From a plasmid, in the sequence record NZ_CP084013.1: a stretch of DNA of 64,000 nt. One strand, written 5' to 3'. The translations under genes were made by a program, and so were the position numbers. Positions 8,971 through 55,152 of the stretch are shown here, piece after piece (within the stretch, counting starts at the first letter, position 1; the number at the start of each line of letters is the position of its first letter). Under the pieces are notes generated by a model, which was given only the letters and a program-made list of their open reading frames with translations, was not told where the DNA came from and did no database searches.

Positions 8971-8994
8971 TGTCTTTTTCCTTTGAAAAGAAAG

Positions 8995-9405
8995 CTAGGG
9001 GAATAGGGGCTGTTCCCATCCCTTGGAATTCCGGACTACTTGATGGGGATGGGAACGGCCACCGCTTTCTTCAGGCCGTCCCGGTCTATCTGCCGCAGAT
9101 CCGTTTTCCTCGTCATCATCGTCAATCCTTTCTAAGCCTTTTCCTTCTCCTCGTTCGTGATCGATCATGTACGCCATGTCGTCGGTCAGCGGCAGCCCGT
9201 ATCCCACATGACTAGGCCGTATATCCACGAAGGTGATGTGCGGCGGCAGACTACCATCCGCGCGTTGCACAAGCATGGAAGCGGCGCCGCCCAACGAAAC
9301 AAGCAAGGCTCCCTCGTCGGTGATGACAGCCGGACCCGCGAGTTCGGCTCCGCTGTCATACCGGACCCGCAGCATCAGGTCTCCGTTTTTCTTCGGATTG
9401 GTCAA
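8995..9405 (-). CDS. hypothetical protein, paralog of the ORF at 3682-4149; first gene of the minus-strand operon
   Basis: Probable TTG start at 9405, 5 nt after an AAGAGGAGGA RBS. The longer ORF that reaches 9483 would run through the promoter motif and is unlikely. Shares 'GYGLPLTDDMAYM' with the ORF at 3682-4149. Confidence 0.45.
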   Translation of the reverse strand: MTNPKKNGDLMLRVRYDSGAELAGPAVITDEGALLVSLGGAASMLVQRADGSLPPHITFVDIRPSHVGYGLPLTDDMAYMIDHERGEGKGLERIDDDDEENGSAADRPGRPEESGGRSHPHQVVRNSKGWEQPLFP

Positions 9406-9420
9406 CGCTCCTCCTCTTTT

Positions 9421-9446
9421 TATGTGGACTTCTTCAGTATAACAAC
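9421..9446 (-). promoter_or_regulatory. conserved element motif (reverse orientation), putative promoter of the minus-strand operon 9405->2221
   Basis: The plus strand reads TATGTGGACTTCTTCAGTATAACA, the reverse complement of the TGTTATACTGAAGAAGTCCACATA-type motif. It sits about 15 nt upstream of the RBS for 8995-9405. Confidence 0.6.
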
Positions 9447-9462
9447 CATATTGTATTTTACA

Positions 9463-9486
9463 TGTTATACTGAATATGTCCACATA
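9463..9486 (+). promoter_or_regulatory. conserved element motif, putative promoter of 9516-10001 (divergent with 9421-9446)
   Basis: TGTTATACTGAATATGTCCACATA, 30 nt upstream of the ATG at 9516. Confidence 0.6.
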
Positions 9487-9515
9487 AAAAGATTGAAAGA
9501 GAAAACCAAAGGAAA

Positions 9516-10001
9516 ATGCAACCCATACAAGACGTCACAGACGCACGAAAGACCTACACCCTATACGAGTGTGAAAAATGCGGAAGCCTGCGACTCGAAA
9601 GATCCGGCAAGCCCATCACCAAGTGCGCCTACTGCGACAACCTCTCCCTAAAACAGAGATTCCTCTCCGCACTGATCTCCATCGTCCACGAAGCCACATA
9701 TAAAATCCCAAACCCAAACAACACCGGAATCGTCCAAAACAAGGCAGACACAAAACTGCCCGGGAGTGTCGTCCAAGTCTTCGTGGATAACCCGGAAACC
9801 TACTGCACAACGAAAATTCAGCTCGGAACCACATCCATCGACTACTCCTATGATTGCACATCAGGGGACATTCGTATCGTTGCGAAAAATTGGGATCCAT
9901 TCGACTTGGAAAATGCCGACCTCGGTACGGGATGGCATATCCGACTGCTGGTGCAGACATGGCGCAACGAAATTGCCAAGCGAATGGAACTGACGGCGTG
10001 A
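9516..10001 (+). CDS. hypothetical protein with N-terminal zinc ribbon
   Basis: 161 aa, 'CEKCGSLRLERSGKPITKCAYCDN'. AAAGGAAA RBS. Confidence 0.5.
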   Translation: MQPIQDVTDARKTYTLYECEKCGSLRLERSGKPITKCAYCDNLSLKQRFLSALISIVHEATYKIPNPNNTGIVQNKADTKLPGSVVQVFVDNPETYCTTKIQLGTTSIDYSYDCTSGDIRIVAKNWDPFDLENADLGTGWHIRLLVQTWRNEIAKRMELTA

Positions 10002-11867: not shown

Positions 11868-12491
11868 ATGCGCACGTATCTTCGGAGGGCCGAGGCGGCG
11901 AACCGTCTGCACATATCGACCACCGCGTTCAAAACGCTCGTAGCCGAGGGGAAAATCAAATACGAGCTGTCGCCCGGCGGGCAGAAGGTGTATGACCCGA
12001 AGGAAATCGACCGTTTCGCCGCCCGCGTTCAGGGTAGGGAGCCGGCGGAAGGCGTTCTCGTGTTCTACGTGCGGGACAGCGAGGGCAACACGACGCGAAT
12101 GAGAAATCAGGAGGAGCGGCTAGAGAAGGCGTATGGCGCTCCGTCAAAAGTGTACCGCGACCGCGCCTCCGGATTGAATGAGAACCGCAAGGGACTGGCA
12201 CGACTGCTCGACGACGCGGAGGAGGGACGTTTCGACCGGGTGGCCGTCACCGCCAAAGACAGGTTGAGCAGGTTCGGCGCATCTTATCTACAACGGCATC
12301 TCGCGTTCCTCGGCATCGACCTGATTGTGTTGGACGGGGAACGGGAGAAGGGGATGATGGACGAACTCATGGACGACTTCATGGCTTTGCTCGCCTCGTT
12401 CTCCGGACGGTTCTACAAGCTGCGCAGCATCGAACATGAGAAACTGCTGCTCGACCGGGCGCGCGAAAGACTGGAGGAGCGTGGAGCATGA
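11868..12491 (+). CDS. tnpA: IS607-family TnpA serine recombinase
   Basis: GGAGG RBS, then an ATG at 11868. MerR-like HTH 'LRRAEAANRLHISTTAFKTLVAEGKIKY' plus a resolvase core 'VLVFYVRDSEGN'. Confidence 0.8.
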   Translation: MRTYLRRAEAANRLHISTTAFKTLVAEGKIKYELSPGGQKVYDPKEIDRFAARVQGREPAEGVLVFYVRDSEGNTTRMRNQEERLEKAYGAPSKVYRDRASGLNENRKGLARLLDDAEEGRFDRVAVTAKDRLSRFGASYLQRHLAFLGIDLIVLDGEREKGMMDELMDDFMALLASFSGRFYKLRSIEHEKLLLDRARERLEERGA

Positions 12492-14146
12492 AAACCGGTG
12501 AAATCGCCTGCGCTGTTCCAGACCTGCACGACTACCGTCTATACGACCACAGGACAGGCGAACCGTTGGACCCGGTGGAGGCCGAAACGCTGCTCTGGCT
12601 GCACTTGGACCATTGCCGGCAATGCCAGAACCGGATGATTCACGACCCGAGGAACCGGAATCTCAAACGGGGCGGAAATGCTGGGAGAGGCAACGAATGG
12701 GCGAGGAAGAACGTCGCCTGCACAAGCCTGCCCTCCAAGTTCAGAAACCTCTCCCATCAGAACCGCGTCAATCAGACCGAGGCCGCCCGACTGCTCCTCG
12801 CATGGCGGGAACGCGAGGACATCGCCACCGCAATCGACGCCATCGGCTGGGAGAAGGCCACCTACGGGAACGTGCAGAAACGTTTGAGCCGGGACATCGA
12901 CCGTGAACTGTTCACGAACGTGCTCAACAGCGGCGGTCATCCAAGCCTGCCCACCGTGGAGCGCACGCAGTTCCCCTACGCGTACTCGAACAACAACTCC
13001 TGCGGCATGTACGTCATCGACCAGCCCGCCGGGGTCATCCGATACGAGCGGATGGCCGTCTACGACAGGTTCGTGGACGTTGAGATATACGCGCCGCACA
13101 TCATGCGCCTGCATCCGAACCTGACGAAGGTGTCCCGGCCCACGCTACGGTGGAACGGGGACTGCGTGACATGGGATGTCATCGTCTTCGAACCAAAACC
13201 CCGCAAAGAGGATGTGAACAAGGTGAGCCACGTCGTCGGCTTCGACCTGAACGCCGACTGGCATGGTGGCATCAGCGGGGCGCGACTCTCCTACAACGGG
13301 ACGGTGAGCCGAGAACTCGTAGCCGGCATCGACACACGCCGCCAGCAAACCGTGTTGGAGGAGCTGTATGTCCAATACCAGCGGTGTTTGAAGAAGCTCG
13401 ACCGGCTCATGCCATGGCAGCGGCCACACGACCCGGACGACCCGCAGCAAGTGGCAGCCCACCCCGAATGGCGGCGACTCTACGAACAGTCGCTCAACCT
13501 CCGGGATAAGATGTACCGCATCAAAACCCTGTTGGACTGGCGGTACGCGCACGACATCACCGACCATGCCAAACCCGGCGAACTCATCGCCGTGGAGAAA
13601 CTTTCCCCGTTCGATGCGGCAGGACGCGTCGAGTTCCGGCACGGCAGCCAACTGGAAAAACTGGAACACGTCGCCTCCAAGACCGGACAGCGCGTGGTGC
13701 AGGTCAACCCGGCGCACACGTCCGCCACCTGCCCGTGGTGCGATACCGTCAACAAGGTCGGCAAAGCCAGACAATACCGGTGCGCAGGATGCAGACGTGA
13801 CATCCCCCGCGACTACGGGTCTGGCGTCAACATCGCCAAACGCGGCGCACGCTATCTCGGACACAAAAACGTCCGACCTACCCCGCCGAAGGGACACGCC
13901 ACACCCAAACGTCCACCGGTCAGACACAAACGACCGGACGAAAAAACACGAGAACTTCTCACACAGATAACGTCAGGAACCGGCAAGGGGCCGGAATCCT
14001 TATGGGCCAAGACCACTCCACTGGAATGGCACATCCCATCGACGGCGACTATCGAGAATACAAGGAACCGACTAGCCCTCGCAAACCAGCGAGACCGGGC
14101 AGCAACGGGGTTACGGCAGAAACCGCAACCACCCCATTCTCGATAA
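12488..14146 (+). CDS. tnpB: IS607-family TnpB
   Basis: 'NPAHTSATCPWCDTVNKVGKARQYRCAGCRRDIPRDYGSGVNIAKRG' forms the zinc ribbon and RuvC-III motif. The start overlaps the tnpA stop. Confidence 0.8.
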   Translation: MKTGEIACAVPDLHDYRLYDHRTGEPLDPVEAETLLWLHLDHCRQCQNRMIHDPRNRNLKRGGNAGRGNEWARKNVACTSLPSKFRNLSHQNRVNQTEAARLLLAWREREDIATAIDAIGWEKATYGNVQKRLSRDIDRELFTNVLNSGGHPSLPTVERTQFPYAYSNNNSCGMYVIDQPAGVIRYERMAVYDRFVDVEIYAPHIMRLHPNLTKVSRPTLRWNGDCVTWDVIVFEPKPRKEDVNKVSHVVGFDLNADWHGGISGARLSYNGTVSRELVAGIDTRRQQTVLEELYVQYQRCLKKLDRLMPWQRPHDPDDPQQVAAHPEWRRLYEQSLNLRDKMYRIKTLLDWRYAHDITDHAKPGELIAVEKLSPFDAAGRVEFRHGSQLEKLEHVASKTGQRVVQVNPAHTSATCPWCDTVNKVGKARQYRCAGCRRDIPRDYGSGVNIAKRGARYLGHKNVRPTPPKGHATPKRPPVRHKRPDEKTRELLTQITSGTGKGPESLWAKTTPLEWHIPSTATIENTRNRLALANQRDRAATGLRQKPQPPHSR

Positions 14147-16223: not shown

Positions 16224-17345
16224 ATGCAGGTGAAACGTCATTGCGCGGTCAAGTACCGCATGTACCCGAACAGGGCTCAGGCGGCATTGATTGACCGCAC
16301 CATCGGTTGTGCGAGGTTCATCTACAATCAGATGCTTGAAACCCGCATCGGCACCTATAAGGCTACGGGTAAGTCGTGCAATCCGACTCCCGCCCAGTAC
16401 AAGGACAGGTATCCGTTCCTGCGTGAGGTGGACAGCCTCGCACTGTGCAACGCCCAATTGAACGTGGCGAAGGCGTACAGGAACTTCTTCCGCGACCCCA
16501 AGCACATCGGCTTCCCGAAGTACAAGGCGAAGCATCGCAATCGTCAGACCTACACGACGAACAACAGCAATAACAACGTCACCCTCGATGAAGGAGGCAG
16601 GCATCTCAAACTACCGAAAGTAGGGATTGTGCGCGTCCGCCAGCATAAACGCATACCCGAAGACTGGAAACTGAAGAGCGTGACCATCGAGCATTGCAAA
16701 AACGGCGAATACACGGCGACGATACTGTTCGAGTACGAGACCCAAGCACTCGAACCCGTCCGACCCGTGCATATCGTCGGATTGGATTACTCCTCCCACG
16801 GCCTGTACGTGTCCAGCGACGGCGAACGAGCCGACTATTCGCGTTTCTACCGGCGGATGGAGCCACGGCTGATGCGCGAGCAACGTAGACTCAGCCACAT
16901 GGTAAAAGGGTCCGGTAATTGGGTGAAACAGAAGCGGCGCATCGCCAAGCTCGCCGCCAAGGTCGGGAACCAGCGAGCCGACTTCCTGCATAAGACGGCC
17001 AACCGGCTCGCCGCCCGATATGATTGCGTCGGCGTGGAGGACTTGGACATGAAGAACATGAGCCAATCCCTCACACTCGGCAAAAGCACGATGGACAACG
17101 GGTACGGCATGTTCCGCACCATGCTCGCATACAAGCTCGAACGGCAAGGCAAGCAGCTGGTCACGGTAGACAGGTTCTACCCGTCCAGTCAACTATGCTC
17201 CGATTGCGGATACCGCAATAAGGATACGAAGGACCTGCATATCCGCGAATGGACATGCCCTGACTGTGGCGTTTGGCATGACAGGGACGTGAACGCCGCG
17301 ACCAACATCATGCACGAAACACGACGACTCATGCAGGAACGATAA
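16224..17345 (+). CDS. tnpB: IS605-family TnpB
   Basis: GGAGG RBS. 'CSDCGYRNKDTKDLHIREWTCPDCGVWHDRDVNAATNI' forms the zinc ribbon and RuvC-III motif. Confidence 0.85.
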   Translation: MQVKRHCAVKYRMYPNRAQAALIDRTIGCARFIYNQMLETRIGTYKATGKSCNPTPAQYKDRYPFLREVDSLALCNAQLNVAKAYRNFFRDPKHIGFPKYKAKHRNRQTYTTNNSNNNVTLDEGGRHLKLPKVGIVRVRQHKRIPEDWKLKSVTIEHCKNGEYTATILFEYETQALEPVRPVHIVGLDYSSHGLYVSSDGERADYSRFYRRMEPRLMREQRRLSHMVKGSGNWVKQKRRIAKLAAKVGNQRADFLHKTANRLAARYDCVGVEDLDMKNMSQSLTLGKSTMDNGYGMFRTMLAYKLERQGKQLVTVDRFYPSSQLCSDCGYRNKDTKDLHIREWTCPDCGVWHDRDVNAATNIMHETRRLMQER

Positions 17346-18398: not shown

Positions 18399-18428
18399 CC
18401 CGACCATTGCGGTCGGGATATTTTTTTT
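18399..18428 (+). terminator. rho-independent terminator
   Basis: Stem CCCGACC / GGTCGGG followed by ATATTTTTTTT. Confidence 0.6.
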
Positions 18429-18508
18429 GGATATCGCCACCAACCGAAAAACGGGTATTTTCAATAGAATATCGGTTAATAACAACATCAAAATCTATCG
18501 TGGAATAT

Positions 18509-21500
18509 ATGCCACGAGGAAACTTCTACCGTCCAGAAAGCTTTATAAGCCCGGCCAGCGAATACGGGCTGCTCCGTTCTGCCACGCCGGATCGCACCGT
18601 ATGGCTGTACGCGCGCATCCCCTGGAGCACTGCATTGCTGGATGGAGCCAACGACCGGAAACGCAACGATGCCGCGCAACAGCTGATGGCGTTCTTCGAC
18701 GGCCTCGCCAATCAGGTCACGGTTGCCGGTATGCGCTACCGTTACATGCTTCAAAGCGAATATCGCGAATTCCATCTACTCACCGGATCCATGCCCGTCC
18801 GATACAGTCCGCCGGCCAGCATGAGGGACACCGACCTCGGACGATACCAGGCGCAGTACTACCGTAGCCAGAAGGTATGCAAGCAGTTCGCGGTCATCGG
18901 CGTTCCTTTGAAACTGGTCGGGGATCATAGCAACAATCGCAAGCCCGGCATGCTGCAACGCGCCCTGACATGGTACGACCGCATGTGCTATTCGGTGGCA
19001 AACGGATGCCCAATGTTCGAAGAGTATCTGCCAGACGCGCATAATATCGAACGAATCATGCTCAACGCCGGGCTGGAACCATTCACCATCATGGATGAGC
19101 AGGAACGCGAACAGCTGGTCGCCATGATGGAATCATGGTGGGTGGGGCGCGCCAACTCGTCGGCCCTGCCTATCCTGGCGGAGAACGCACACGTGCATTT
19201 CTTCCCGGATAACGCGACCTGCGCCCACGCCAAAAACCTGTACGACAATGGCGTGGACTGCACCGAGTGGAATATCGACGAAGAATACCCGGCCAGCATC
19301 TGCTTCGCACGCACGGCGGATTTCAACCAAAGCAGCATCACGGATCCAAACAACCTGTGGATTGCTAGACTCATGGAAGTCGGACGAGCCGGCGGAGCCA
19401 ATGCGGTCGCCACAAGCATCCGAGGCAAAGTCGAACCGGCGAAAGTCACCGCCGACCAGATTCGACGCAACAGCCGCACCATCGACGAAAGCATTAAGGA
19501 ACGGTACGAGAAAGGCCATGAAGCCCCCGGTGATATGACCGAAATCAAGGAGCGTTTGGATTATAAGAAGGCAATCTACAATACTCCGGACATGCCGCCC
19601 AGCATCATTGATCTGAGCGTCGCCACCTGCGTGGCGGGCAACGAGCAGATGGCCATCGACGCTTTGGGGTGTATCCCCAACATCGAGTTCGTCAATCTGA
19701 CGACGGCTAGCGAACAGTTGATGGCGTTCAAAAGCATGCAGGCCTGTTCGAACGTACGCATGACCCCCTATGAGATCCACTGGGCCGCAACATGCGTCGC
19801 GGGAGGAGGCGTGAGCAGTTTCGCCAAAGCAGGCGACAGGGACGGAGCTCTTGTCGGATTGTCCGAAGCCAACAGGCAACCGGTGTATATCGGGACAACA
19901 ACCGTGCAGGACAAGGACAGGCGTCCAATTTTGGCTATTATCGGAGATACAGGAAGCGGGAAGGCCGTTCACATTTCCTCCACAATTCCGGTTCCCCCTC
20001 AGGCTAGCTTCCCCCATGGAAAAATGGCTAAGATCAGCGATTTGCATGAGGGAGACCTCGTCTACGGGCGGGACGGAAAACCTTATCCACTCCTCAAGCT
20101 TCATCCGATTCACACGGAAGATCTTTACGAAGTCACCCTCAGTGACGGTCAAACGATAAAAGCCAGCGGGAACCACCAGTGGATCGTCTCCGATTTCAAA
20201 GATCGAAACAAATTCAGAAAACCAAAACATTTGAAATCCCAACAGCGTAAGAACATGCTGTCGGAGACATACGATGAGCTATGTCGGATGTCTGATGCGC
20301 TACCGGCCCAATCAACCATGAGCGTGAACGAGCTTGCAGAGTTTGTCCATCCAGTAACGAGTCGTTGGTGGAGCGGAGAGAGCAATGCCAAGACCATTGC
20401 CGCAGCGCTGCGATTTATGGGAGTTGAATCTCATCAAGAACAGCGAGACCGCGCGATAGCGGATACAAAAAAACCTTTTAAGACTCGGCAGAACTGTAGG
20501 CGCTATAACACGCAGGAAGCTCTTCGGGCTTTGATTGCACATTATGATGGCGTGGCGCAGCATGCGAAAAGATGGAACGATCTCGCCAGGGAGCGTGCGG
20601 ATGTCCTAAGAAAGCATTTGGAAGATAACTATCCGAAGGGCATCAGCATCACTGACATACAGAAGATGCTCGAGGATCGTTCACCAAGCCGTTCCTCTAT
20701 CGCATCTGTCATAAAAACGCTCAATCCAATCAGTGAGTGGGATACGGAAGAACGAATTCACTCCGACAGAATGCGTCATGATTCGGTATCCGTATACAAC
20801 GTTCGAGAAGCATGCAGAGCCATAGGGCAACGCATGATGCTTCGTTATGAGGGGGCCTTCAACGAGACCAATTCCCTTGGATATTGTGAACAGGTTGTGA
20901 CTACGCGAGACATGCTTGCGTCTGGTCTAAAGGATTCAGGCAATCGTGCGCAATGGGCAATCCGAGCCGCGATGCCTGTTGCCAACCCGCAAGCCGACCT
21001 GCCACTTGACCCATGGGTTTTAGGGGCTTGGTTAGCCGACGGTAGTATCGGCACTGGAATCATCGCTTCAGATAACAGGAATGGTGATTTGCAGCATGTG
21101 AAGTCCTGTCTCACCTCTGCGGGATTTTCTCTAGGAAGCATCAATACGCCGATGGTCGTGAATGTGAAGGGGCTTGTCTCCATTCTTCGCGATATGGGGA
21201 TACTCCGCGAAAAACGCATTCCTGAGATCTACTTCTCGGCGAGCATCGAGCAAAGACTCTCCCTCGTGCAGGGGTTGCTGGATCAGGATGGGACCATCTC
21301 CTCAAATGGGAATATAGAGTTCACCCAGTCCGCCGATCATCTGCCGATTGTCCGAGGAATGGTGCGCCTGCTGAGATCTCTGGGAATCGTCGTTCACGAA
21401 CCCCATCTCAACAAAGCAGGATACACGGCTGATGGTGTGCGTCACGAGGCTCAGGATCGTTATCGCATCACCTTCACGACGGATCTGCCGGTATTCTCTT

Positions 21501-22828
21501 TGCAACGCAAAGCGGCTTTAATCCCTACGACGTTGAGACAAACCCAGCAATGGCTATACGTCAAAGACATCAGGAAGATATCCAACGCGCCTCATCGTTG
21601 TCTGACCGTTGGAAGCCCTGACCATTCGTTCCTCATCGCTGATTACGTGCCGACCCATAATACGATGGCGGCGTTCAGCCTGTTTCTGCAATGGTCGAAG
21701 ATTGACGCGCGTGACGGTAAAGGCAAGACCCCGTGCATTTACATTAATCCGAAGGCCGGTAATGATTTGGAGGATGCGACCCGTTCGCAGGGTGGTACGG
21801 TCATCCGGTTGGATTCCGATGTGGCCAACGGCACGTTCGACCCGTTCAACGTGATTCCGAATGTGGAGGAGGCCAAGGAAATCGCCGTCCTGATGATGAC
21901 GAACATTCTTGGCGGTGACACAAAGATGGAATCCGCCATGACAGCCATGCTGGATTACGGCGTCAAACACGGGGCGCGTTACGTAGGCCGGGCTCTGCTT
22001 GTCGCCGCCCAAGCTGTTGCGAAGACCATCAAAGCGGGGAACACGGCGGAGTCCATTGGGTTGCCTTCCAACACCCTCGAGGTGTTTTCGACAATCAGCA
22101 TGAACCTGAAGGCGAACCAGGGACTACGTCTTATCTTCGGCACCGATAATGACACCAAGCCGTTGACGATCAGCCAAAACCTGACCCTCATCAATGCCGG
22201 AGACCGTTCACTCATCCCCGAAGGCCAAGATGATTCCATGACCGCTCGCATCCGCCAGTGGACGTTGCGAATGGTCGTCATGGGAGCCGGCACCGCCGTT
22301 CGAGGCCGCGATGGCATGGTAGGTGTCGATGAGGCATGGGTGTTCATGGGCAAGGACAAGGGAGCTTCCCGAACCTTCGAACAATGGGTGCGTATGGCCC
22401 GTTCGCAACGATTCACGCCTGTCATCATCAGCCAGAAAGTGCAGGAGTTCATCGATGCCGACTTGACCGGAGGTATCAGCCGCGCCCTCCTTCTGGCGTT
22501 GGACAACCCGGAAGAAGCCAATGGCACGGTCAGTCCGGCCAAATCAGCGGAACGACTCCTAGGCATCGAAGACCCCAATGGTCGGATCTTGCAGCGCATG
22601 GGAGCCGATGATACTTTGGACAACGGTCAGCCGAACCCGAACAGTCTGAAGCGCCTGGTAAGCGCATCGACGAGGAAGACCGTTCGCGGAGCCGTCGCCT
22701 ATTTCAAAGACGGGTCCAAGCAGCCTATTCCAGTGGAAATCGTGATTCCTCCGGCATTGTTGAAGGAAATCAGCACCACTGCCACGGACAAGATCGCACG
22801 AGAACAACGAAAGAACAAGGAGCAGTGA
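18509..22828 (+). CDS. VirB4/TrsE-like conjugative P-loop ATPase, interrupted by a large intein
   Basis: A split Walker A, 'IIGDTGSGK' ... intein ... 'TMAAFSLF', reconstitutes GDTGSGKT after splicing. Walker B 'VGVDEAWVFMG' follows. The extein is about 870-900 aa. The start at M35 (18509) is preferred, because the ORF-track start at 18407 lies inside the upstream terminator. Confidence 0.7.
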   Translation: MPRGNFYRPESFISPASEYGLLRSATPDRTVWLYARIPWSTALLDGANDRKRNDAAQQLMAFFDGLANQVTVAGMRYRYMLQSEYREFHLLTGSMPVRYSPPASMRDTDLGRYQAQYYRSQKVCKQFAVIGVPLKLVGDHSNNRKPGMLQRALTWYDRMCYSVANGCPMFEEYLPDAHNIERIMLNAGLEPFTIMDEQEREQLVAMMESWWVGRANSSALPILAENAHVHFFPDNATCAHAKNLYDNGVDCTEWNIDEEYPASICFARTADFNQSSITDPNNLWIARLMEVGRAGGANAVATSIRGKVEPAKVTADQIRRNSRTIDESIKERYEKGHEAPGDMTEIKERLDYKKAIYNTPDMPPSIIDLSVATCVAGNEQMAIDALGCIPNIEFVNLTTASEQLMAFKSMQACSNVRMTPYEIHWAATCVAGGGVSSFAKAGDRDGALVGLSEANRQPVYIGTTTVQDKDRRPILAIIGDTGSGKAVHISSTIPVPPQASFPHGKMAKISDLHEGDLVYGRDGKPYPLLKLHPIHTEDLYEVTLSDGQTIKASGNHQWIVSDFKDRNKFRKPKHLKSQQRKNMLSETYDELCRMSDALPAQSTMSVNELAEFVHPVTSRWWSGESNAKTIAAALRFMGVESHQEQRDRAIADTKKPFKTRQNCRRYNTQEALRALIAHYDGVAQHAKRWNDLARERADVLRKHLEDNYPKGISITDIQKMLEDRSPSRSSIASVIKTLNPISEWDTEERIHSDRMRHDSVSVYNVREACRAIGQRMMLRYEGAFNETNSLGYCEQVVTTRDMLASGLKDSGNRAQWAIRAAMPVANPQADLPLDPWVLGAWLADGSIGTGIIASDNRNGDLQHVKSCLTSAGFSLGSINTPMVVNVKGLVSILRDMGILREKRIPEIYFSASIEQRLSLVQGLLDQDGTISSNGNIEFTQSADHLPIVRGMVRLLRSLGIVVHEPHLNKAGYTADGVRHEAQDRYRITFTTDLPVFSLQRKAALIPTTLRQTQQWLYVKDIRKISNAPHRCLTVGSPDHSFLIADYVPTHNTMAAFSLFLQWSKIDARDGKGKTPCIYINPKAGNDLEDATRSQGGTVIRLDSDVANGTFDPFNVIPNVEEAKEIAVLMMTNILGGDTKMESAMTAMLDYGVKHGARYVGRALLVAAQAVAKTIKAGNTAESIGLPSNTLEVFSTISMNLKANQGLRLIFGTDNDTKPLTISQNLTLINAGDRSLIPEGQDDSMTARIRQWTLRMVVMGAGTAVRGRDGMVGVDEAWVFMGKDKGASRTFEQWVRMARSQRFTPVIISQKVQEFIDADLTGGISRALLLALDNPEEANGTVSPAKSAERLLGIEDPNGRILQRMGADDTLDNGQPNPNSLKRLVSASTRKTVRGAVAYFKDGSKQPIPVEIVIPPALLKEISTTATDKIAREQRKNKEQ
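19964..21661 (+). other. intein (566 aa) with a LAGLIDADG homing-endonuclease domain, class-3-like (Ala1, WCT triplet)
   Basis: Starts at Ala, directly after the Walker A lysine. Block B 'ASGNHQW'. Two LAGLIDADG-type motifs, 'LGAWLADGSIGTG' and 'LVQGLLDQDGTIS'. Block F 'HRCLTVGSPDHSFLIAD' has Cys in place of the usual Asp. Block G 'VPTHN' is followed by the +1 Thr. GC content is lower than in the flanking extein DNA. Confidence 0.7.
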
Positions 22829-26634: not shown

Positions 26635-27933
26635 CTATCTGGATGGTTTGCGCCGCCAATAGTCATGCACCGGATGCCCATCACGATCGTGGGAGACGAC
26701 ATGCACCATGCCATTGTCGGGAAGGACGAAGCGTTGAGGACTTGGCATGCCACTGTTCGCGACACGAATCTTGTCCAACAGCTTGGCCTGCAGTTCCGGG
26801 GCCAGATCCATATACGCAGTATGCGCATTCAACCGGACCAAGTCGCTGATGCGGATAGCCTCGTCTCGTGCAGTGTCGGAATCGAATCCACAATAATCAG
26901 CCAACCTCGCATAATGGTCCGGCGTCACTTCACTGGCATGCTCCGCTCCTGAGAATGGCATCGCGAGCTTGTCCGTCAACCCCGGCCATACAGTCGTGGT
27001 CATCACATCGTATGCTGGGCTTAGTTTCCAGGACTCACCATCCAGCGAAGTAGGCATGACTGAATAGTTACGGGCATGCGCATCGCAATTATCGACAGCC
27101 ACGTTGAAGGCCAATCGTCGCAGCCACTCCTCCCCCAGTCTGCCGGACGGATCCATCTTCCGTAGGGTGGTCAGCGTATCGACGGCACTCACCTTGTACT
27201 TCTCGGATGATGGTAGGCCCAATGCCTGCACCATATCCTCCATCGGCAGACGAACCGGCATACCATTTTCGATACGACGATCGAACCGTTCCACGATATA
27301 GGTCTGCTGGCCGTTGAATTCCTGGATATCCGACTCCGGGGTTTCGATGCCGACCATCTTGGAAAGCATCATGGTCGCATGTTCTACTTCATCAGCGTCA
27401 TAAATGCCGGCCGGTTTAAGAATATGAGTCGACGGAACGGCGCCATTGGGCCACACCCATTCATCGCCTACACGGGACAAGGAGAATTTGCCTTGAGCTC
27501 CTGCCAAGGAAAATCTGGCACCTTTGTTCCTGACGAACCATGAATCAGGCGTCCGTTTGACGGCGGCAATACGTGTCGCGATTTCGTCATCGGTTGCTTC
27601 TGCAGGAGGCACACTGGCAATAGTCGGCATCTCATCGTTCCGAGAGAACACCAGCGCACCAGCTGAATCCACGTTTTCCAGCAAGTCGAAGGATTCCTGA
27701 GATTTCGCGCCGACTGCCTGCATCATGGCATACTTGGCGGCACCTGATTCCGGGAGTAAATTTTCTAGAAAATTCTCCGGTGCATCCTCGCGCCACTCTC
27801 CATCTTTCGGGAGGCTGAAACTTATCCGTGGAGCATTCCAATCATACTCAAACGCGACTCCTCGTTTGAGAGAGGTGAACACGCCAACGTGGGAGCCGTT
27901 CATCCAGACGTTTAGCCGATCACCTTTTCTCAT
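26635..27933 (-). CDS. hipA: HipA-family serine/threonine kinase toxin
   Basis: 'LRRLAFNVAVDNCDAHARNYSV' is the HipA catalytic-loop equivalent, and the N-terminal region has HipA-type coupling-domain character. The start overlaps the upstream stop (ATGA). Confidence 0.75.
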   Translation of the reverse strand: MRKGDRLNVWMNGSHVGVFTSLKRGVAFEYDWNAPRISFSLPKDGEWREDAPENFLENLLPESGAAKYAMMQAVGAKSQESFDLLENVDSAGALVFSRNDEMPTIASVPPAEATDDEIATRIAAVKRTPDSWFVRNKGARFSLAGAQGKFSLSRVGDEWVWPNGAVPSTHILKPAGIYDADEVEHATMMLSKMVGIETPESDIQEFNGQQTYIVERFDRRIENGMPVRLPMEDMVQALGLPSSEKYKVSAVDTLTTLRKMDPSGRLGEEWLRRLAFNVAVDNCDAHARNYSVMPTSLDGESWKLSPAYDVMTTTVWPGLTDKLAMPFSGAEHASEVTPDHYARLADYCGFDSDTARDEAIRISDLVRLNAHTAYMDLAPELQAKLLDKIRVANSGMPSPQRFVLPDNGMVHVVSHDRDGHPVHDYWRRKPSR

Positions 27934-28226
27934 GCCACCACGCATTCCGCAGGCAAGGCAGTGGCATCCACTCCAAGAACCTTCATTATCCGTCGAGTCG
28001 GAAGATATGGTGCAACGCCGGTGTCAATCAGCCGTTGCACCACGCTTGAATCGACTCGTGCTTTCTCGGCCACTTCATCGACGGTACGGTGCTGCATGAA
28101 CTCGGCCATGACCCTGCGCATACGTTCCGGTGATTCGATGAATCTCACGTTGCTGGCGGTTTTCGGCATGGCCTGCTTGATGCGCTGACGGTACTCGTCG
28201 CTAACCTGCCATTTCTCGTATATCAT
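27930..28226 (-). CDS. hipB: HTH antitoxin partner of HipA (HipB-like)
   Basis: 98 aa with the HTH 'HRTVDEVAEKARVDSSVVQRLIDTG'. Lies immediately upstream of hipA and is translationally coupled to it. Confidence 0.55.
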   Translation of the reverse strand: MIYEKWQVSDEYRQRIKQAMPKTASNVRFIESPERMRRVMAEFMQHRTVDEVAEKARVDSSVVQRLIDTGVAPYLPTRRIMKVLGVDATALPAECVVA

Positions 28227-28234
28227 TTTTTTGC

Positions 28235-28516
28235 CTATGCATTAGTAAGGTGTCTGCGAATGTATTCGCTACGACTGATGTGGTACCGCTTCGCGGCGGC
28301 AGTGACCTGTTCGAGCTGGCTTTCGGGCATCTTTATGGTGACGGTGACCATGCGCTCGTCCCGTTTCGGCAGCATGTGGAGACCGTAGTAGATAGGGCCG
28401 GTGATACCGTGGCCGGCGTCCTCGCTTTCCATTCGTTCCACGTCACTGCTGACCTGCTCCTCGGTCATTCCGAATTTCTCCAGCAGTTCCTTGTCTCGTT
28501 CGTTGAAATCGCTCAT
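28235..28516 (-). CDS. ribbon-helix-helix antitoxin (BrnA/CopG-like)
   Basis: C-terminal RHH-like 'KMPESQLEQVTAAAKRYHISRSEYIRRHL'. AGAGGTGA RBS. ATGA overlap with the upstream toxin-like ORF. Confidence 0.5.
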   Translation of the reverse strand: MSDFNERDKELLEKFGMTEEQVSSDVERMESEDAGHGITGPIYYGLHMLPKRDERMVTVTIKMPESQLEQVTAAAKRYHISRSEYIRRHLTNA

Positions 28517-28895: not shown

Positions 28896-29945
28896 TCAGC
28901 CCAACAAAACCCGCGACACCGCCCCCTCATCAGGCAACCCGGAATCCAACAATTCAGCCAAACGCGACGCAACACGATCGGCATCAACACCGGTGAACAT
29001 GCCACCCATCCATTCGGACATCAGCGTCCGGACATGCTCGCAGTCGGCGGAATGCACGTGACGTGCGGGACCTTTGCTCTCATCCACTACTTCAGCCTCA
29101 AGGGGAATATCAGCCGACTCGCTCTGCGCAGTCTGTCGCGTTGGAGCATCGGTGCGAGGATAATACTTGATCCCATGCCTGAACGGTTCGGCCCTCAAAT
29201 TCGGAGCCGCCTCCAAGACATTCGACAACGCCTGTTTGAACCTGCGCCGGAAGTCCTTCATCGGCAGGCCGGTGCCCTCGAACTGGTCATACAGTTGACG
29301 CCATGAAACGTAGGCGACGTGGTCGAGCCGGTATGTGCGGTACGTCAACCATATATAGACGTCCAACGCCCGCGCCGATTTGCCCAGACGCGAGATGACA
29401 TCCATGCTGAGTGGGACGCTTGGCTTCGACAGCTCGGCCCACATCTCGTCCGTGAACTGGATTGACGCGATGATGTCCTGTTCTGGCCTGAACTGTGTAC
29501 GGCCTTTTCTGGCGACGGTGAACGGCGTGCATTCGCCTTTGTTCTCACGACTCTCGTCGGTGTTCATGATGGAGATCGAGGTTCGCGCCAAGTTCATCAG
29601 CGTGTCCTCCGTCTCTTTCTGACAGCCGGAGTGGTTGGATATTCCGGTGTTGTCGCAGAATTCCTGGAAGCTGCCACGAAAGACAACAGTGTGGGTGTCC
29701 TGATCCACGTCGGGATTGTTCTTCATGCGAATCATGGACTGCACGTAGAGGAATATCAGTCGCGGGGTTTTCCCGTAGACCCATTCCTCGGGGCGACTGG
29801 GGGTTATGCGGACTGTTTCCCGACCGTTCGTTCTCTCTATGTAGGATGAGCTTGGTTTCGACACGGGGAAGAGGGCGAGTTTCGCCATGAGCGGCGGTGC
29901 GCCCGTGTTCATTTTCGTTGTGGCGATGGCGTTATTATTGGTCAT
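28896..29945 (-). CDS. repA: RepA-like plasmid replication initiator
   Basis: ACGGAG RBS. Winged-helix-like 'LDVYIWLTYRTYRL'. It is adjacent to the iteron array and paralogous to the ORFs at 51205-52185 and 61902-62666. Confidence 0.65.
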   Translation of the reverse strand: MTNNNAIATTKMNTGAPPLMAKLALFPVSKPSSSYIERTNGRETVRITPSRPEEWVYGKTPRLIFLYVQSMIRMKNNPDVDQDTHTVVFRGSFQEFCDNTGISNHSGCQKETEDTLMNLARTSISIMNTDESRENKGECTPFTVARKGRTQFRPEQDIIASIQFTDEMWAELSKPSVPLSMDVISRLGKSARALDVYIWLTYRTYRLDHVAYVSWRQLYDQFEGTGLPMKDFRRRFKQALSNVLEAAPNLRAEPFRHGIKYYPRTDAPTRQTAQSESADIPLEAEVVDESKGPARHVHSADCEHVRTLMSEWMGGMFTGVDADRVASRLAELLDSGLPDEGAVSRVLLG

Positions 29946-30035
29946 GTGGTCGCTCCGTTTCAGCGATTGCCAGATACCCGGCCGGTACGAACGGTGCGGG
30001 TATCTTTTTTCTTTTCGTCGTTATTTTATCGCGTT

Positions 30036-30273
30036 TTTCTTAGAATTTTGACACCTTTCTTAGAATTCTGACACCAAATTTAGAATTTGGACACCATTTT
30101 TAGAATTATGACACCTTTCTTAGAATTTTGACACCATCTCTGCGAATGCCATCGAACCACACCCCGATTGCCTACGATCAGAGCGGTCACAGCCTTAGAA
30201 TTTTGACACCCTCGCTTAGAATTTTGACACCGACTCTTAGAATTTTGACACCCGTTCTTAGAATTTTGACACC
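30036..30273 (+). repeat. iterons: 9 direct repeats of TTAGAATTTTGACACC (5 at 20-bp spacing, 4 at 21-bp spacing), putative oriV
   Basis: Repeats start at 30040, 30060, 30080, 30100 and 30120, then at 30195, 30216, 30237 and 30258. They lie immediately upstream of repA, on the opposite strand. Confidence 0.8.
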
Positions 30274-30320
30274 GACATGGCCTCTCAGCCCTTATGGCAG
30301 TAGGGCTAAGCGGCACCCCC

Positions 30321-30361
30321 AAGTGATATTACAAGTGATATTACAAGTGAATATACAAACT
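30321..30361 (+). repeat. 3 tandem copies of the 12-bp unit CAAGTGATATTA next to the iterons (possible DNA-unwinding or host-factor site)
   Basis: CAAGTGATATTA CAAGTGATATTA CAAGTGAATATA. Confidence 0.6.
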
Positions 30362-30618
30362 CTCTCTTAATCTCTCTCCACTTCGACCCGCGATCCACCG
30401 GGATGCCGCTGACGCGGCAAATGCCACACGCTCTCCTGCACCTGTTTCGACCTCGGAAAAGAAGAATCCAGTCGGTTCGCTTGGCAGCGAACCTCAGAGC
30501 AAACAAAAAAAAAGACTGAATCTCGGACGAACAGGATTGCCGTACTCGTTCTTTCTAGTATCGGTTAATTTCAATAAATCTTCGGTTAATAACAAAACTC
30601 GAAGATAGATTGACAATC

Positions 30619-33600
30619 ATGGCAAGCAGAAACAGCAGGAGCAGAACACAGACCCGTCCTATATCGAGTGGCGTCTGGTTTTCGCTGTTTCTTGTCTTTG
30701 GAATTATCCTCTGGTTCTTTTGGCGCCTGCCCTTGGTCCCGTTCCTTTGGCTTGGCATGCTCGCCGGAGGAATCACACAACAGTATCCGGTCAACGCTTC
30801 CGGAAGCCGCAAGGATCCCCCATCCGACAAGCAGATGATGGTCTACCACCGTTGGAAGGACATGCTTGCCGGTCTTATTCCGAATGCGGATTGGCTGGAG
30901 ATTCGTCGTGTTTCCTGGTGGATGGGCTGGATGGGCGGCATGCTGCTGGGATTGAACGGTGCCGTCTGGATTGCCCTGGTGGATGGCCTGTTCGGTTTCA
31001 TGCTCGCCCAAGGCTGGTCGCATTACAGGAATCGGCGCGTTGACCGTAGGCATGTCTACAAGGGCGTCAGTATTCCGGCGTTCCTGACCAAATCGCCCGC
31101 CTGGGCGCGGCTTTTGTCCGTCTCCATGGCGTTGCTGGTTTTCGCCGGGGTCCTGGTTTTCGTGTTGGCGGGATACATGAGCTGGCTGAGCGCTGTGACG
31201 CTTCCGGGGTTCGTGTTCCTGCTACTCGTATGGATGTTGGGGCGCAAACCGCAGTCCCGGTACTGGCGTGAGCTGGTCGAAGGGCAACAGCTGCTTGATG
31301 GTTGGCTTGCCGGGGACGATTTGCAGAAGGCATGGTCGGGAGCCTATCTGACGCAGGTCAACAAAATCGGTTCTTCGGATAATCCTCTGATCGTCTACCG
31401 GATTCGTCTGCAGGGGTCGGACGGTAAGCCTCGCTCGAACGAAGGAGTTTTCAAGCTCGGCGTGGAAGCGTTGCGGGCGCCGGCATTGGCGGACGGATAC
31501 CGTTTCGTGTGTCTACTGTCCGCCAAGCAGAAGAAGAAAGGGGCGGAACAGTTCGACCCGTCCAGTGTCCGTCTGGCGCTTGGCATGGACGAATCCTGCA
31601 TCCCCTCCATCGCGGAGAGAAAGGCCGGCGAAGGTCTTGCCTCTCTCGTCGCCGACATCGCCTATGCGCAAACCGCTTTCATCTGGCATAAACGCGCCCC
31701 GTTGACGTTGGCTCATGATGTGAGCGCCGACGAGAGCAAAGCCGCCTGGCTGTTGGAGATCATCACTCCCCCGCAGGGCGGGGATTCCATCGACCGCATC
31801 AGCTTCGACTGGCTGGAGGGAGAAGGATCTCCTGCCGAGACTCTGCGGATGCCGGTGTTCGCCGACCTGCAGGACAAGTTCCACCTGGTTGCATTCGACG
31901 ATGCGAAACTATCCGACAAGGGCAACAAGTGGCGGCCGGACGGCATGACCCACAAGAAAGCCTTTGACGATTACATCACCATTTCCAAACGGTTCAAAAG
32001 CGACCAGTCCGCTTGGGTCAAATGCCTCCCGTCGAAACTCAATCCACCGGCACCCATCTACGACTATGAGAAAACCCAGGACTGCGACGGCTGGCAACTG
32101 CATTACCTGCCATTGGTACTCACCGCACCAGCCACGCCGTCCGACTACGAGCGTTGCGACCTTGGCCCATTGCAGCCGGAGGCACGGTTCATCGGACTCG
32201 TGGACGAAGGCTCCGACATGGCCGGACTGATCTGGTCCACCGGAAGCGCGCCCGTACGCATCGACCAGCTGACCGGCAACACCCCCCTTCACCGCAAGTA
32301 TGCGGAAGCGTTGATATTCAAAACCCTTATCGACGTGCTTCCCGCAAAAGCGTCCGTGAACATCACGGCCTGCACTCCGCAAAGCAAAGACAAGCCGATT
32401 TGGAGCATCCAATTCCAATTAGGCAACGGCGCGACCGTGGAAGACGCCCGCAAACAGTCCGCCAGAATCCAATCGTCGGTCGGGGCGAAACATATTTACT
32501 GGGAATGGCGGTCAGCCGACAGTGCGACCGTATGGCTGTGCGACGACCCGTGCCTGGATGTCAGGGACATCAGCCACTGGAATCGCAGATCAAAGCAAAA
32601 GCATCTCATCGAACTCGCCTTAAGCGACTCGTGGGGCGTGGCCGGAGTCAGCGATCCCAGCGGACGCACCCCCGATGTGGTCAGTCTCGGCGCGTTGCCA
32701 AGCAACCATGACGTGTTGTTGGCACGATTCCAGATTCCGGCCGGGTTGGATGTGGACAAGCCCTCACGGAACATAGGCAAGTTCCTGACCAGCGCAGACT
32801 ACGCCTACGGGCGTATCCTCCCGCGCGGTGAGGAACACGGTTCGAACCTGTACGACATGGTGCTGGCGAAACGCAGCCCGTTCCCCACCATGGTCAACGC
32901 GGACTGGGATTTCGCCCGCCAGTCGAAACCACGCATGTTCCCGTTGGGCGTGGACGATATGGGCAAACCGGTCTACTGGAGCATGAAGGACACGTTCCAC
33001 CTGCTCATCAGCGGCAAATCCGGAACCGGTAAATCCTCCATCGCGCAGATCGTGGTCGCCGAAGCGCTGCTCAAAGGCCATGACATCATCCTCATCGACC
33101 CATCCAAAGGTTGCATCGACTTCACTCAATGGGCGAAACCGTTGGCGTTGGCGTTCGTCGGCTTGGGCCAGATGCGCGAAACCGAAGCCGTCATCGCCTG
33201 GCTGCGCAACGAGATGGCACAACGGGTGAAACTGTTCAGCCGGTATGGTGTCGGCAGCATCTACGACCTCGACAAAAGCCAGCTCAATGAGGAAGAGCTT
33301 GCCCACACGAAACCCATCGACATCGTGTTCGACGAATTCAACAGCTACCTGCAAGAGGCCGGCAAGACCACGCAGAACCCGAACAGGGACATCCAGCTGG
33401 CCAACGACAATGCGGCCGTCAGCGCGACGAACAATTCGATACGACGCACCATGAGCGCTCTCGGCAAAATCGTCGTGCAGGGGCGTACCGCAGGCATCAG
33501 CGTCATCCTCGGCGCCCAGCGTCTGACCATGGACGACATGAAGCCGTACAACGCGAACGCCTTCTTCCGTTCGCTCGGCCGAATCCTGTTGGGTATGGAC

Positions 33601-34017
33601 TCCACGGCGGGCATCATCAGCGCGCAGAACCTCAGAGAGGCGAACCGGCTCCAACAGTCGTTGAAGGGCGAAGGCGGGAAAATCCCGCAGGGCCGCGGAA
33701 TCTTCGAAACCGCGCAAGGCGAACTGCTGGCCGTCCAAACATGGTGGTCGGGAGGCCAAGAAAAGTTGGCGGAACTGTTCGCCGACCGCACTCCCCCGCA
33801 ACCCATCGACTATTCGCGGTTCATGCCATCCGAAGCGGAAACCTACGGCGAAGTGTCCGAAGACGAACTTTCCAAGCTGCTCAGCCAAGGAACGGATCCA
33901 CAGACAGCCGGCGAGGAAATCAACGACATGGACGAACTCCACGACATGCTCCACCACCCAGACAACAACGATGCCGATTCCGAAGACGGGGACGACATCG
34001 AAGAAGTCGACTGGTAG
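30619..34017 (+). CDS. FtsK/SpoIIIE-family DNA translocase with N-terminal TM domain (TraB/TcpA-like conjugal transfer ATPase)
   Basis: The N-terminal roughly 250 aa has 4-6 hydrophobic helices. Walker A 'LLISGKSGTGKSSIAQ' and Walker B 'IDIVFDEFNSY'. Acidic C-terminus. Confidence 0.75.
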   Translation: MASRNSRSRTQTRPISSGVWFSLFLVFGIILWFFWRLPLVPFLWLGMLAGGITQQYPVNASGSRKDPPSDKQMMVYHRWKDMLAGLIPNADWLEIRRVSWWMGWMGGMLLGLNGAVWIALVDGLFGFMLAQGWSHYRNRRVDRRHVYKGVSIPAFLTKSPAWARLLSVSMALLVFAGVLVFVLAGYMSWLSAVTLPGFVFLLLVWMLGRKPQSRYWRELVEGQQLLDGWLAGDDLQKAWSGAYLTQVNKIGSSDNPLIVYRIRLQGSDGKPRSNEGVFKLGVEALRAPALADGYRFVCLLSAKQKKKGAEQFDPSSVRLALGMDESCIPSIAERKAGEGLASLVADIAYAQTAFIWHKRAPLTLAHDVSADESKAAWLLEIITPPQGGDSIDRISFDWLEGEGSPAETLRMPVFADLQDKFHLVAFDDAKLSDKGNKWRPDGMTHKKAFDDYITISKRFKSDQSAWVKCLPSKLNPPAPIYDYEKTQDCDGWQLHYLPLVLTAPATPSDYERCDLGPLQPEARFIGLVDEGSDMAGLIWSTGSAPVRIDQLTGNTPLHRKYAEALIFKTLIDVLPAKASVNITACTPQSKDKPIWSIQFQLGNGATVEDARKQSARIQSSVGAKHIYWEWRSADSATVWLCDDPCLDVRDISHWNRRSKQKHLIELALSDSWGVAGVSDPSGRTPDVVSLGALPSNHDVLLARFQIPAGLDVDKPSRNIGKFLTSADYAYGRILPRGEEHGSNLYDMVLAKRSPFPTMVNADWDFARQSKPRMFPLGVDDMGKPVYWSMKDTFHLLISGKSGTGKSSIAQIVVAEALLKGHDIILIDPSKGCIDFTQWAKPLALAFVGLGQMRETEAVIAWLRNEMAQRVKLFSRYGVGSIYDLDKSQLNEEELAHTKPIDIVFDEFNSYLQEAGKTTQNPNRDIQLANDNAAVSATNNSIRRTMSALGKIVVQGRTAGISVILGAQRLTMDDMKPYNANAFFRSLGRILLGMDSTAGIISAQNLREANRLQQSLKGEGGKIPQGRGIFETAQGELLAVQTWWSGGQEKLAELFADRTPPQPIDYSRFMPSEAETYGEVSEDELSKLLSQGTDPQTAGEEINDMDELHDMLHHPDNNDADSEDGDDIEEVDW

Positions 34018-50463: not shown

Positions 50464-51213
50464 CAGCGATAGGCCACGATCTTGTTCAGGATTTCCTTTT
50501 GTTCGGCGAAATCACCAGAAGCAAGAAGAATCATGGCCGTCGCTCGACTCCGCAAGGAAAATCAAGTGGACAACACCCTCCTAGGAGATCAAGATCGTGG
50601 CCTATCGGTGTAAATGTATTCACCGATAGGCCACTATCGTTCGTTCTCGTTCTTACTGCTATAAAAGAGTATGTCCAGTATGTAGTATGACTATAAGCAC
50701 TGCCCGTCAGCCCTTATAGGAGAAGCGGTTTGAGCAGGTTCGTTACACCGATAGTCCACGGATTCGGCAGTGATATTCCACGGAAACGACACTGATAGGT
50801 CACTAAAACAGCAGCGATAGTCCACTATCATTGCATGGATACTCCACGTTGCAAGACCATCGTCAAAGGCGATTGCACCGATAGTCCATCATTGGATGCA
50901 CCGATAGGCCACTATCCGCGAAAAGTGCCGGATAGTGGCAGTATACAAGGCATGGAACCGTCGGATAAGCAACGCAGTAATACTGCGGAAGAAAGGTTTT
51001 TGCACCGATAGGCCATCAACAGAGACAAGAAAACAGCATCGATAGGCCACTACGTGTGGGATGAAATCCACGAATCAACTTCAAAAAAATTGGGAAACTG
51101 CACCGATAGGCCACGTGTCGATACAGCGATATGCCATCAGCATCAAAAACCGACTGCATTAAGCACTGATCTGCATCAGCGAATAAGGTGGGACGATTAG
51201 TGGCCTATCGCTG
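50464..51213 (+). repeat. array of about 13 copies of a 14-bp motif CACCGATAGGCCAC, in both orientations at irregular 20-60 bp spacing
   Basis: Copies at 50464, 50597(rev), 50621, 50746, 50790, 50811, 50875, 50898, 51003, 51037, 51100, 51124 and 51200(rev). The pair 50597/50621 forms a palindrome around TAAATGTAT. The array lies 3' of dcm and 3' of the RepA-like gene at 51205-52185. Confidence 0.75.
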
Positions 51214-52900: not shown

Positions 52901-53285
52901 TCCGCGCTGGGAATCCCGGTGCTAAAGCACCGGGAGGAAGTCAATGGGGCTGACAGGCTTTCGATAGCCTGCCGGAAACCATTTGCTACGTGCCGGAGGC
53001 CGGTAAGGACAACCGTCATCAACCTTGCCACAAGAATAGACGCCAACACCGTTTCTTCTTCCCGTTTCACCCTCGTAGCGTGAAACCCGACTTTGATCCC
53101 ATTGCCGATTAACGGGTCAAAGCCGGAAAACTTTGAATCGGACTGGTCGGACAGTCGGACGATGGATTCGCCCGACCAGTACATGAACATCGTCTACAAG
53201 CCGTGCGGGTTCGCCGAACGCACCCGTCCACGGATGATCTTCCCCACGCAAGTGGGGATAAACCTACGCACGTGACAGCAAGCAA

Positions 53286-55101: not shown

Positions 55102-55152
55102 CTCGGAGCAGGAAGCTATTCCGCTGCCTATCTTCGGCTTCCTGCTCCACAT

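Follow-up and report, generated by a model that had tools for sequence, protein, structure and literature searches.

The nine phased repeats upstream of repA in this Bifidobacterium plasmid are probably (at a rough estimate, three chances in four) the RepA-binding array of a second replicase gene, a selectively kept auxiliary Rep-iteron cassette and not the working origin. RepA would bind the array cooperatively, as shown for its homolog from plasmid pMP7017, and the array would act at least as an autorepression operator for repA, because the nearest repeat covers the -35 region and repression has been seen in pMP7017. The locus would have the layout of an iteron-type theta origin, yet the plasmid would replicate from a separate locus containing repB and its 20-mer iterons. 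Inherited with the conjugative backbone, the module may serve as a conditionally used second replicon or as an incompatibility or specificity determinant; we infer that it still has some role and is not dead DNA. The puzzle is that this second Rep-iteron unit is dispensable and yet about as conserved as the essential initiator. Plasmids of the pMP7017 type underlie new cloning vectors, and no other large conjugative plasmids are known from bifidobacteria. When megaplasmids of this family are annotated, the label oriV should not be given to iteron-like repeats that adjoin a RepA gene.

A pMP7017-type repA locus

The window (the whole stretch of DNA analysed, 64 kb of a plasmid of ~190 kb) is part of a pMP7017-family conjugative megaplasmid of Bifidobacterium longum, as judged from DNA matches and shared layout. 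Its repeat region is 97.7% identical in DNA to the B. longum plasmid NZ_CP146883 (CP146883) and 84.9% identical, over 83% of the query (megablast), to positions 96166-97656 of pMP7017 from B. breve JCM7017 (KM406416), which are annotated as RepA. With these matches, the first-pass annotation was right to argue for an autonomously replicating plasmid. The pMP7017-like layout comprises a VirB4-like ATPase with a putative intein, a CHAP hydrolase, HipA, repA, two FtsK-like ATPases and another RepA_C gene, as well as a tmRNA and 20 tRNAs. The repA gene is the ortholog of pMP7017 repA (KM406416 96166-97215), with 90% protein identity and the same flanking genes. The features discussed below are collected in Table 1.

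Table 1 Position and nature of the features at the repA and repB loci of the window
Feature	Positions	Strand	Description
repA	28896-29945	-	349-aa RepA_C-family protein, predicted iteron-initiator fold, RepB paralog
Leader palindrome	29972-30005		34 bp, AGATACCCG-N16-CGGGTATCT, between predicted TSS and Shine-Dalgarno; read from sequence
Putative repA -10 hexamer TAAAAT	30023-30028	-	Placed by alignment from the pMP7017 TSS
Repeat cluster 1	30040-30135	+	Five 16-bp repeats, 20-bp start-to-start phasing
Repeat cluster 2	30195-30273	+	Four identical 16-bp repeats, 21-bp phasing, GC-rich 5-bp spacers
Inverted-repeat motif AGCCCT-TATGGCAGT-AGGGCT	30287-30307		Between repeats and 12-mers; local alignments across lineages
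AT-rich 12-bp tandem array	30320-30355	+	Two exact units and one variant
FtsK/SpoIIIE-like membrane ATPase	30619-34017	+	Pfam PF01580; divergent, conserved neighbor of the repA module
RepB-type iteron cluster	50464-51213		14 copies of TGGmCTATCrsTG; homologous to the origin region defined by experiment in pMP7017
repB	51205-52185	-	326 aa, Pfam RepA_C E=2.3e-10; homolog of the essential pMP7017 initiator

The array consists of nine copies of TTAGAATTTTGACACC on the + strand (30040-30273), six exact and three with one mismatch. When up to three mismatches were allowed over the 64-kb window, nine matches were found against 0.31 expected and none of 100 shuffles reached nine, which confirms the earlier description of nine repeats at 20/21-bp phasing beside repA. 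Repeats of this type occur nowhere else in the window. The first one starts 94 bp upstream of the repA ATG, and the two clusters are 75 bp apart, start to start. Dineen et al. 2021 (Microb Biotechnol, PMC8313286) described direct repeats A1-A8 at pMP7017 repA with the consensus RGYGTCARWATTCTA. The reverse complement of our repeat unit is GGTGTCAAAATTCTAA; seven of the nine repeats fit the pMP7017 consensus exactly and the other two with one mismatch. On sequence grounds, the array is the already known pMP7017-type repA or 'A repeats' locus.

The two loci share the gene, the synteny from HipA through repA to the divergent FtsK-like gene, the repeat consensus, the leader palindrome and the 12-mers, and both plasmids carry repB, its iterons, the tmRNA and the tRNA array ~21 kb away. 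They differ in repeat number (4+4 in pMP7017, 5+4 in the window) and in the -10 region, which reads TAGGAT in pMP7017 and TAAAAT in the window. Their DNA has diverged by ~15%, and the window represents the B. longum plasmid lineage, whereas the pMP7017 replication test was made with the B. breve version.

Beyond the repeats, the 12-mer CAAGTGATATTA occurs twice exactly at 30320-30343. The first-pass annotation had counted three copies; the third unit, CAAGTGAATATA at 30344-30355, is a variant with three differences from CAAGTGATATTA, equivalent to a one-base shift, and TRF gives 2.6 copies for the array, so that the count stands for two exact units only. The variant unit is real, since it is found in pMP7017 too. 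No duplex of the repA intergenic region is less stable than this array: the 40-mer 30320-30359 has a dG of -43.3 kcal/mol, at about the 0.1 percentile of the window, although other intergenic regions of the window are equally unstable. In its anatomy, the array appears DUE-like. No DnaA box of the form TTATCCACA or TTGTCCACA was found within one mismatch in 29946-30609. We gave no weight to the 3' half of the repeat, TTTGACACC, as a DnaA box; it is one mismatch away from TTTTACACC, a motif called DnaA-box-like in the 2021 pMP7017 paper (PMC8313286).

RepA and its control region

The adjoining gene, described as RepA-like in the first-pass annotation, does encode a member of the RepA_C family (Pfam PF04796, E=3.9e-11, 44 bits against a cutoff of 26). 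A sequence search of PDB chains returned only noise (E ~1). The AF2 (AlphaFold) model of the protein (pLDDT 75.8, pTM 0.67) has its best PDB matches in Foldseek with domains 2-3 of RctB (E=3e-7), and it matches many RepE54 entries, among them the RepE-DUE ssDNA complex 8ac8, with E ~1e-4 and a TM score of ~0.6 normalized to the target. According to this model, RepA is a winged-helix initiator of the RepE/pi/RctB class. A reading of RepA as a relaxase was rejected because the model shows only winged-helix domains and a short helical tail. RepA and RepB are paralogs with 26% identity (E=5e-21).

Two further observations concern the RepA sequence. The C-terminal extension contains, at residues ~296-306 (window ~29030-29060), the motif HVHSADCEHVR with three His and one Cys, which is conserved in the P0011 and P0013 lineages and replaced in P0012 and P0015. 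The gene is also mosaic: between metagenomic loci L003 and L004, dS is 0 over codons 1-215 and 0.37 over codons 216-349, which indicates within-gene recombination.

We infer the repA promoter by homology with pMP7017, in which primer extension placed the TSS 71 nt upstream of the ATG (PMC8313286). Carried over by alignment, the TSS falls at ~30016 in the window, and TAAAAT is found at the place equivalent to our -10 hexamer in L086 and L087. The first repeat (30040-30055) would lie over approximately -24 to -39 of this putative promoter, that is, over its -35 region; the pMP7017 repeats are likewise reported to 'precede and overlap the repA promoter' (PMC8313286). A consensus promoter scan returned only hexamers that lie within repeats (TTTAGA/TAGAAT) and were not read as promoters.

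The leader palindrome matches the '35 bp palindrome' of pMP7017 (PMC8313286). As RNA, the repA leader folds with -24 kcal/mol (z=-3.6), and a hairpin of different sequence occupies the same leader position in L005, L006, L086 and L087. An Rfam scan of 29700-30800 gave zero matches, which places the hairpins outside known RNA families. The inverted repeat behaves differently: its fold as RNA is insignificant (z=-0.8 and -1.25), so it more likely acts as a DNA site. Its stem, AGCCCT-N9-AGGGCT, is conserved where RepA is only ~40% identical, with counterparts at 5591-5611 in L005 and 5649-5669 in L006. The orientation of the 9-nt loop (TATGGSAGT) relative to repA and the iterons is, in the window lineage, opposite to that in L005 and L006.

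Two class features of iteron theta replicons are present at the locus, namely an initiator with a predicted tandem winged-helix (WH1-WH2) fold and phased direct repeats beside rep; a DnaA box, which is common but not universal in the class, is absent. Comparison with F RepE/ori2, R6K pi, pPS10 RepA, RK2 TrfA and RctB of Vibrio cholerae chromosome 2 extends the likeness from the modeled winged-helix fold to phased 16-22-bp direct repeats beside rep, one of which covers the rep promoter, to a palindrome close to that promoter and to an adjoining AT-rich stretch of short repeats. The window locus departs from these systems in having no DnaA box and in the phasing of its clusters, which differs (20 and 21 bp). 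Moreover, the pMP7017 homolog is inactive in replication, and its RepA is mainly dimeric, up to octameric, and binds nonetheless. The part of the earlier claim that described the anatomy of an iteron-type Rep module is upheld by the repeats, the predicted iteron-initiator fold of RepA and the equivalent repeats in relatives.

Conservation, diverged lineages and natural variants

All five sequenced plasmids carry repA intact (349 aa), and its pairwise dN/dS is 0.05-0.12 at dS up to 0.5. Compared with pMP7017, omega is 0.108 (~0.11) for repA, 0.069 (~0.07) for the essential repB and 0.137 for the FtsK-like gene. Our metagenomic survey yielded 48 family loci; repA is intact in 39, and most of the breaks lie in contigs of ~1-3x coverage. 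Array phasing was judged in the ~44 loci with intact arrays, in which cluster 1 has 20-bp phasing with 4-7 copies and cluster 2 has 21-bp phasing wherever at least two copies are present (1-6 per locus). The 12-mers number 1-5 in relatives. Across 400 repeats, the core TTAGAATT-NN-GACACC hardly varies, with free variation confined to positions 9 and 10. By these measures, the repA module is under purifying selection and not decaying.

More distant RepAs, 38-47% identical, keep the layout of the module with the lineage-specific repeats GGTGGCRGAATRTTCAC, GATGGTGGGAAAGTGCAC and GGTGGACTTTTACCATCA. L005 and L006, for which enough upstream DNA is available, retain the order of -10 TAAAAT, leader hairpin, phased repeats, inverted-repeat motif and AT-rich 12-bp array, the last being shared between them and homologous to that of the window; the short contigs L086 and L087 show TAAAAT, leader hairpin and repeats. 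L005 and L006 have FtsK-like proteins that are 98% identical and near-identical adjoining DNA, whereas their RepAs are 69% identical and their iterons differ. In this contrast the module behaves like a co-varying specificity cassette, in the manner of replication and incompatibility determinants, and the co-variation of RepA and repeats indirectly backs specific RepA-iteron binding across the lineages.

A scan of species-representative genomes for this RepA clade returned only ~30%-identity matches in unrelated MAGs. Outside the megaplasmids, RepA has its nearest plasmid relatives, at ~30% identity, in small cryptic Bifidobacterium plasmids (pCIBAO89, pDOJH10L and NZ_CP084021), which have 21-bp-phased repeats directly upstream of rep, as in the 2.1-kb pCIBAO89 and a 4-kb B. 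longum plasmid. RepA presumably drives replication of pCIBAO89, because it is the only annotated gene there; this differs from the megaplasmid setting, as do pDOJH10L and NZ_CP084021, whose rep lies beside mob and not beside FtsK-like genes. The first-pass annotation had named RepA homologs lacking associated repeats as evidence that would speak against it. Since pCIBAO89 and the 4-kb plasmid carry 21-bp-phased repeats, and the diverged lineages also have repeats upstream of rep, this objection falls away.

Some natural variants are disrupted. L062 and L064, from different assemblies, have the same 1-nt deletion at repA nucleotide 424, which truncates RepA at codon 199; with the shared deletion and an unchanged 5+4 array, they seem to form a sublineage that is naturally repA-null. 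An IS605-type element with a 411-aa TnpB-like ORF separates the -10 hexamer from the first repeat in L024 and L056 (~8500-9910), its insertion point lying exactly between the two. L004 has an IS200/IS605 element between the two repeat clusters, and in L003 an element of this family directly follows the TTAC of the last 12-mer (~4590). Such disrupted alleles fit a dispensable module and could fit a remnant.

The IS200/IS605 positions in the L004 repA control region are ~4250 and ~6300, and this region of the family looks like an insertion hot spot for IS200/IS605 elements. The window carries members of the family as well, with TnpB-like ORFs at 780-2243, 12488-14146 and 16224-17345. In L050 (OKVT01000001.1), the repA locus lies on a 549-kb contig, compared with plasmids of ~190 kb, and a single repeat is left of the distal cluster; the contig may reflect integration into a chromosome or an assembly error.

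The working origin and the role of the repA module

The replication test suggested in the first-pass annotation has a published counterpart for pMP7017, and its outcome was negative: pBif_repA, carrying 1829 bp with repA and the upstream repeats, gave 0 transformants in B. breve UCC2003 (PMC8313286). The result applies to the fragment of the B. breve plasmid in one B. breve host. In the same study, a repA insertion mutant was viable, insertional inactivation of repB was impossible, and the minimal replicon consisted of repB and the 20-mer iterons downstream of it (PMC8313286). Purified pMP7017 RepA was mostly dimeric with tetramer and octamer fractions and shifted a promoter/eight-repeat probe in one cooperative step (Hill 6.3, Kd ~122 nM), and repA promoter activity was 3.7-fold lower with the megaplasmid present (PMC8313286). 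The suggested EMSA is thus positive for the homolog, but with a probe that held the whole eight-repeat array and not a single iteron, and the binding was that of a promoter/operator.

The window holds the counterpart of the pMP7017 minimal replicon. Its RepB is 92% identical to pMP7017 RepB (omega 0.069). TGGmCTATCrsTG is found 18 times in the window, where 0.41 matches would be expected, and 14 of these sites form the cluster that abuts repB; the whole locus (50464-52185) is 21 kb from the repA array. The cumulative GC-skew minimum of the window, at 48,840, lies beside repB, and a slope of about -25 per kb gives way there to one of +7 per kb; the only change at 30 kb is a steeper slope of unchanged sign. 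RepB-type iterons are absent from the repA region. The RepA repeats and RepB iterons occupy separate sites and therefore give no sign of cross-talk via shared sites. By analogy with pMP7017, the working origin is repB with its 20-mer iterons at 50.46-52.19 kb. The statement that 29946-30361 'defines' an origin is consequently not supported, given that the pMP7017 homolog does not replicate, that its repA is dispensable and repB its minimal replicon, and that in the window a repB locus lies near the skew minimum and polarity does not switch at 30 kb.

The gene neighborhood connects the module with putative transfer genes. The divergent FtsK-like ATPase is likely a conjugative coupling or translocase protein, and it is 63% identical to its homolog in L005. 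In all lineages with upstream DNA (L005, L006 and L009), repA is divergent from a trio of FtsK-like, NACHT-like ATPase and FtsK-like genes; the opposite flank of repA is occupied by CHAP hydrolase and VirB4-like genes in L006, L007 and L008. The repA-FtsK linkage is found across DNA of 46-63% GC. More distant RepA_C plasmids have rep beside parA or mob, without FtsK-like linkage, and in L003 and L004 IS elements lie between the repA module and the FtsK-like gene. A relaxase Pfam domain was not found in 28 large or neighboring ORFs of the window, which covers 64 kb of the plasmid's ~190 kb. MOB-suite found no relaxase in the five plasmids and typed all of them as non-mobilizable, although conjugation of pMP7017 has been demonstrated by experiment. 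The locus has neither an adjacent relaxase nor a recognizable nic-site family that would mark an oriT.

Downstream of repA on the same strand, 26635-28516 hold a 120-aa ORF, a CopG/ribbon-helix-helix protein, a 98-aa ORF and a HipA-family kinase, likely a toxin-antitoxin module; pMP7017 and L004 have other small genes between repA and hipA. The VirB4-like (AAA_10) ATPase ORF (18407-22828, 1473 aa) includes a homing-endonuclease domain, Hom_end, at residues ~938-1031, and the presence of this domain within the ORF suggests an intein.

What the repA module does can be read in several ways. A functional vegetative origin, at which RepA bound to the iterons opens the AT-rich 12-mers, would account for the complete origin-like anatomy, the RepE/RctB-like predicted fold and the small Bifidobacterium RepA_C plasmids with 21-bp-phased repeats directly upstream of rep. 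For pMP7017, this reading is largely refuted by the non-replicating fragment, the tolerated repA knock-out and a repB that is both essential and sufficient; with the skew switch beside repB, the missing DnaA box and the persistence of frameshift and promoter-split variants of repA in nature, we regard it as very improbable here as well. Even less credible is a partition centromere of the parC/ParR type, in which direct-repeat clusters flanking a promoter are bound cooperatively by an autoregulating dimer. The two repeat clusters and the single, strongly cooperative shift by a multimerizing dimer (pMP7017 RepA) recall such a system, but the predicted fold of RepA is Rep-like and not that of a ribbon-helix-helix ParR. 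The operon continues with small ORFs, a CopG-like protein and HipA and contains no partition NTPase of the ParM/ParA type, on which ground we rejected this candidate. The authors of the 2021 paper suggested a dysfunctional replicase left from co-integration that only binds its own promoter (PMC8313286). That repA is neither required nor sufficient for replication, that pMP7017 has been described as a co-integrate of two modules, and that frameshifted and IS-disrupted alleles occur in nature would agree with a dead remnant. We nevertheless consider this unlikely, as repA has an omega of 0.05-0.12 at dS up to 0.5, similar to the 0.069 of repB, is intact in five of five plasmids and 39 metagenomic loci, shows strictly conserved phasing and iteron core, and keeps its layout with co-varying iterons down to ~40% RepA identity.

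Slightly more plausible, if still doubtful, is a direct part in DNA transfer, played by RepA and its repeats, by the inverted repeat and 12-mers, or by both: the locus could be a recipient-establishment origin, could offer the FtsK-like translocase a site in cis, or could control the divergent transfer operon. The recurrent position of repA beside the FtsK/NACHT/FtsK trio and opposite the CHAP and VirB4-like genes, its absence from FtsK neighborhoods in more distant RepA_C plasmids, and the conservation of 12-mers and inverted repeat, like that of the better-conserved FtsK-like protein, while the iterons diverge, speak for such a part. The relaxase missing from the window ORFs and from the five MOB-suite typings, in a family with a conjugative member, does so too. 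On the other side, the synteny may reflect a shared backbone alone, the RepA model has no nuclease domain, and IS elements split the module from the FtsK-like gene in two loci. Returning to the auxiliary cassette that we favor, one form of it can be put forward tentatively, namely a live module that acts conditionally in replication or specificity and is linked to the conjugation genes. Its origin would, for example, fire only during or just after transfer, when the plasmid establishes itself in a recipient, or would need additional factors from plasmid or host; another option is that the module would determine incompatibility or entry specificity. A live module of this kind would explain constraint like that of repB, specificity swaps on 98%-identical backbones, adjacency to FtsK and silence in the probe assay.

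Secondary replicons are familiar from IncF plasmids, in which RepFIB and RepFIC lie beside the primary replicon and are dispensable for maintenance; RepFIB is capable of its own replication, and RepFIC is visibly disrupted in F. The repA module resembles them as an extra, dispensable Rep-iteron unit. It differs in that the unit is intact, under purifying selection, and inactive in one test (of the pMP7017 homolog). Our search of the literature on pMP7017 from 2021 on found no later work on RepA; the supplement of a 2024 transcriptome paper has no entry for ORF124 or ORF125, and its main text is silent on repA function.

Further observations concern the surroundings of repB. Next to it lie a tmRNA (tag ANTVSSSRFTLVA) and then, on the + strand, 20 tRNA genes (52946-58236), as reported for pMP7017. 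A 34-bp promoter motif described for pMP7017 occurs in eight copies in the window (9418, 9466, 11159, 14197, 42160, 46627, 52369 and 60792), with 0 expected by chance. None of these copies lies in the repA intergenic region, and one is ~180 bp upstream of repB. Within its conserved core, the motif has ATGTCCACA, a sequence that differs from the actinobacterial DnaA-box consensus TTGTCCACA at one position.
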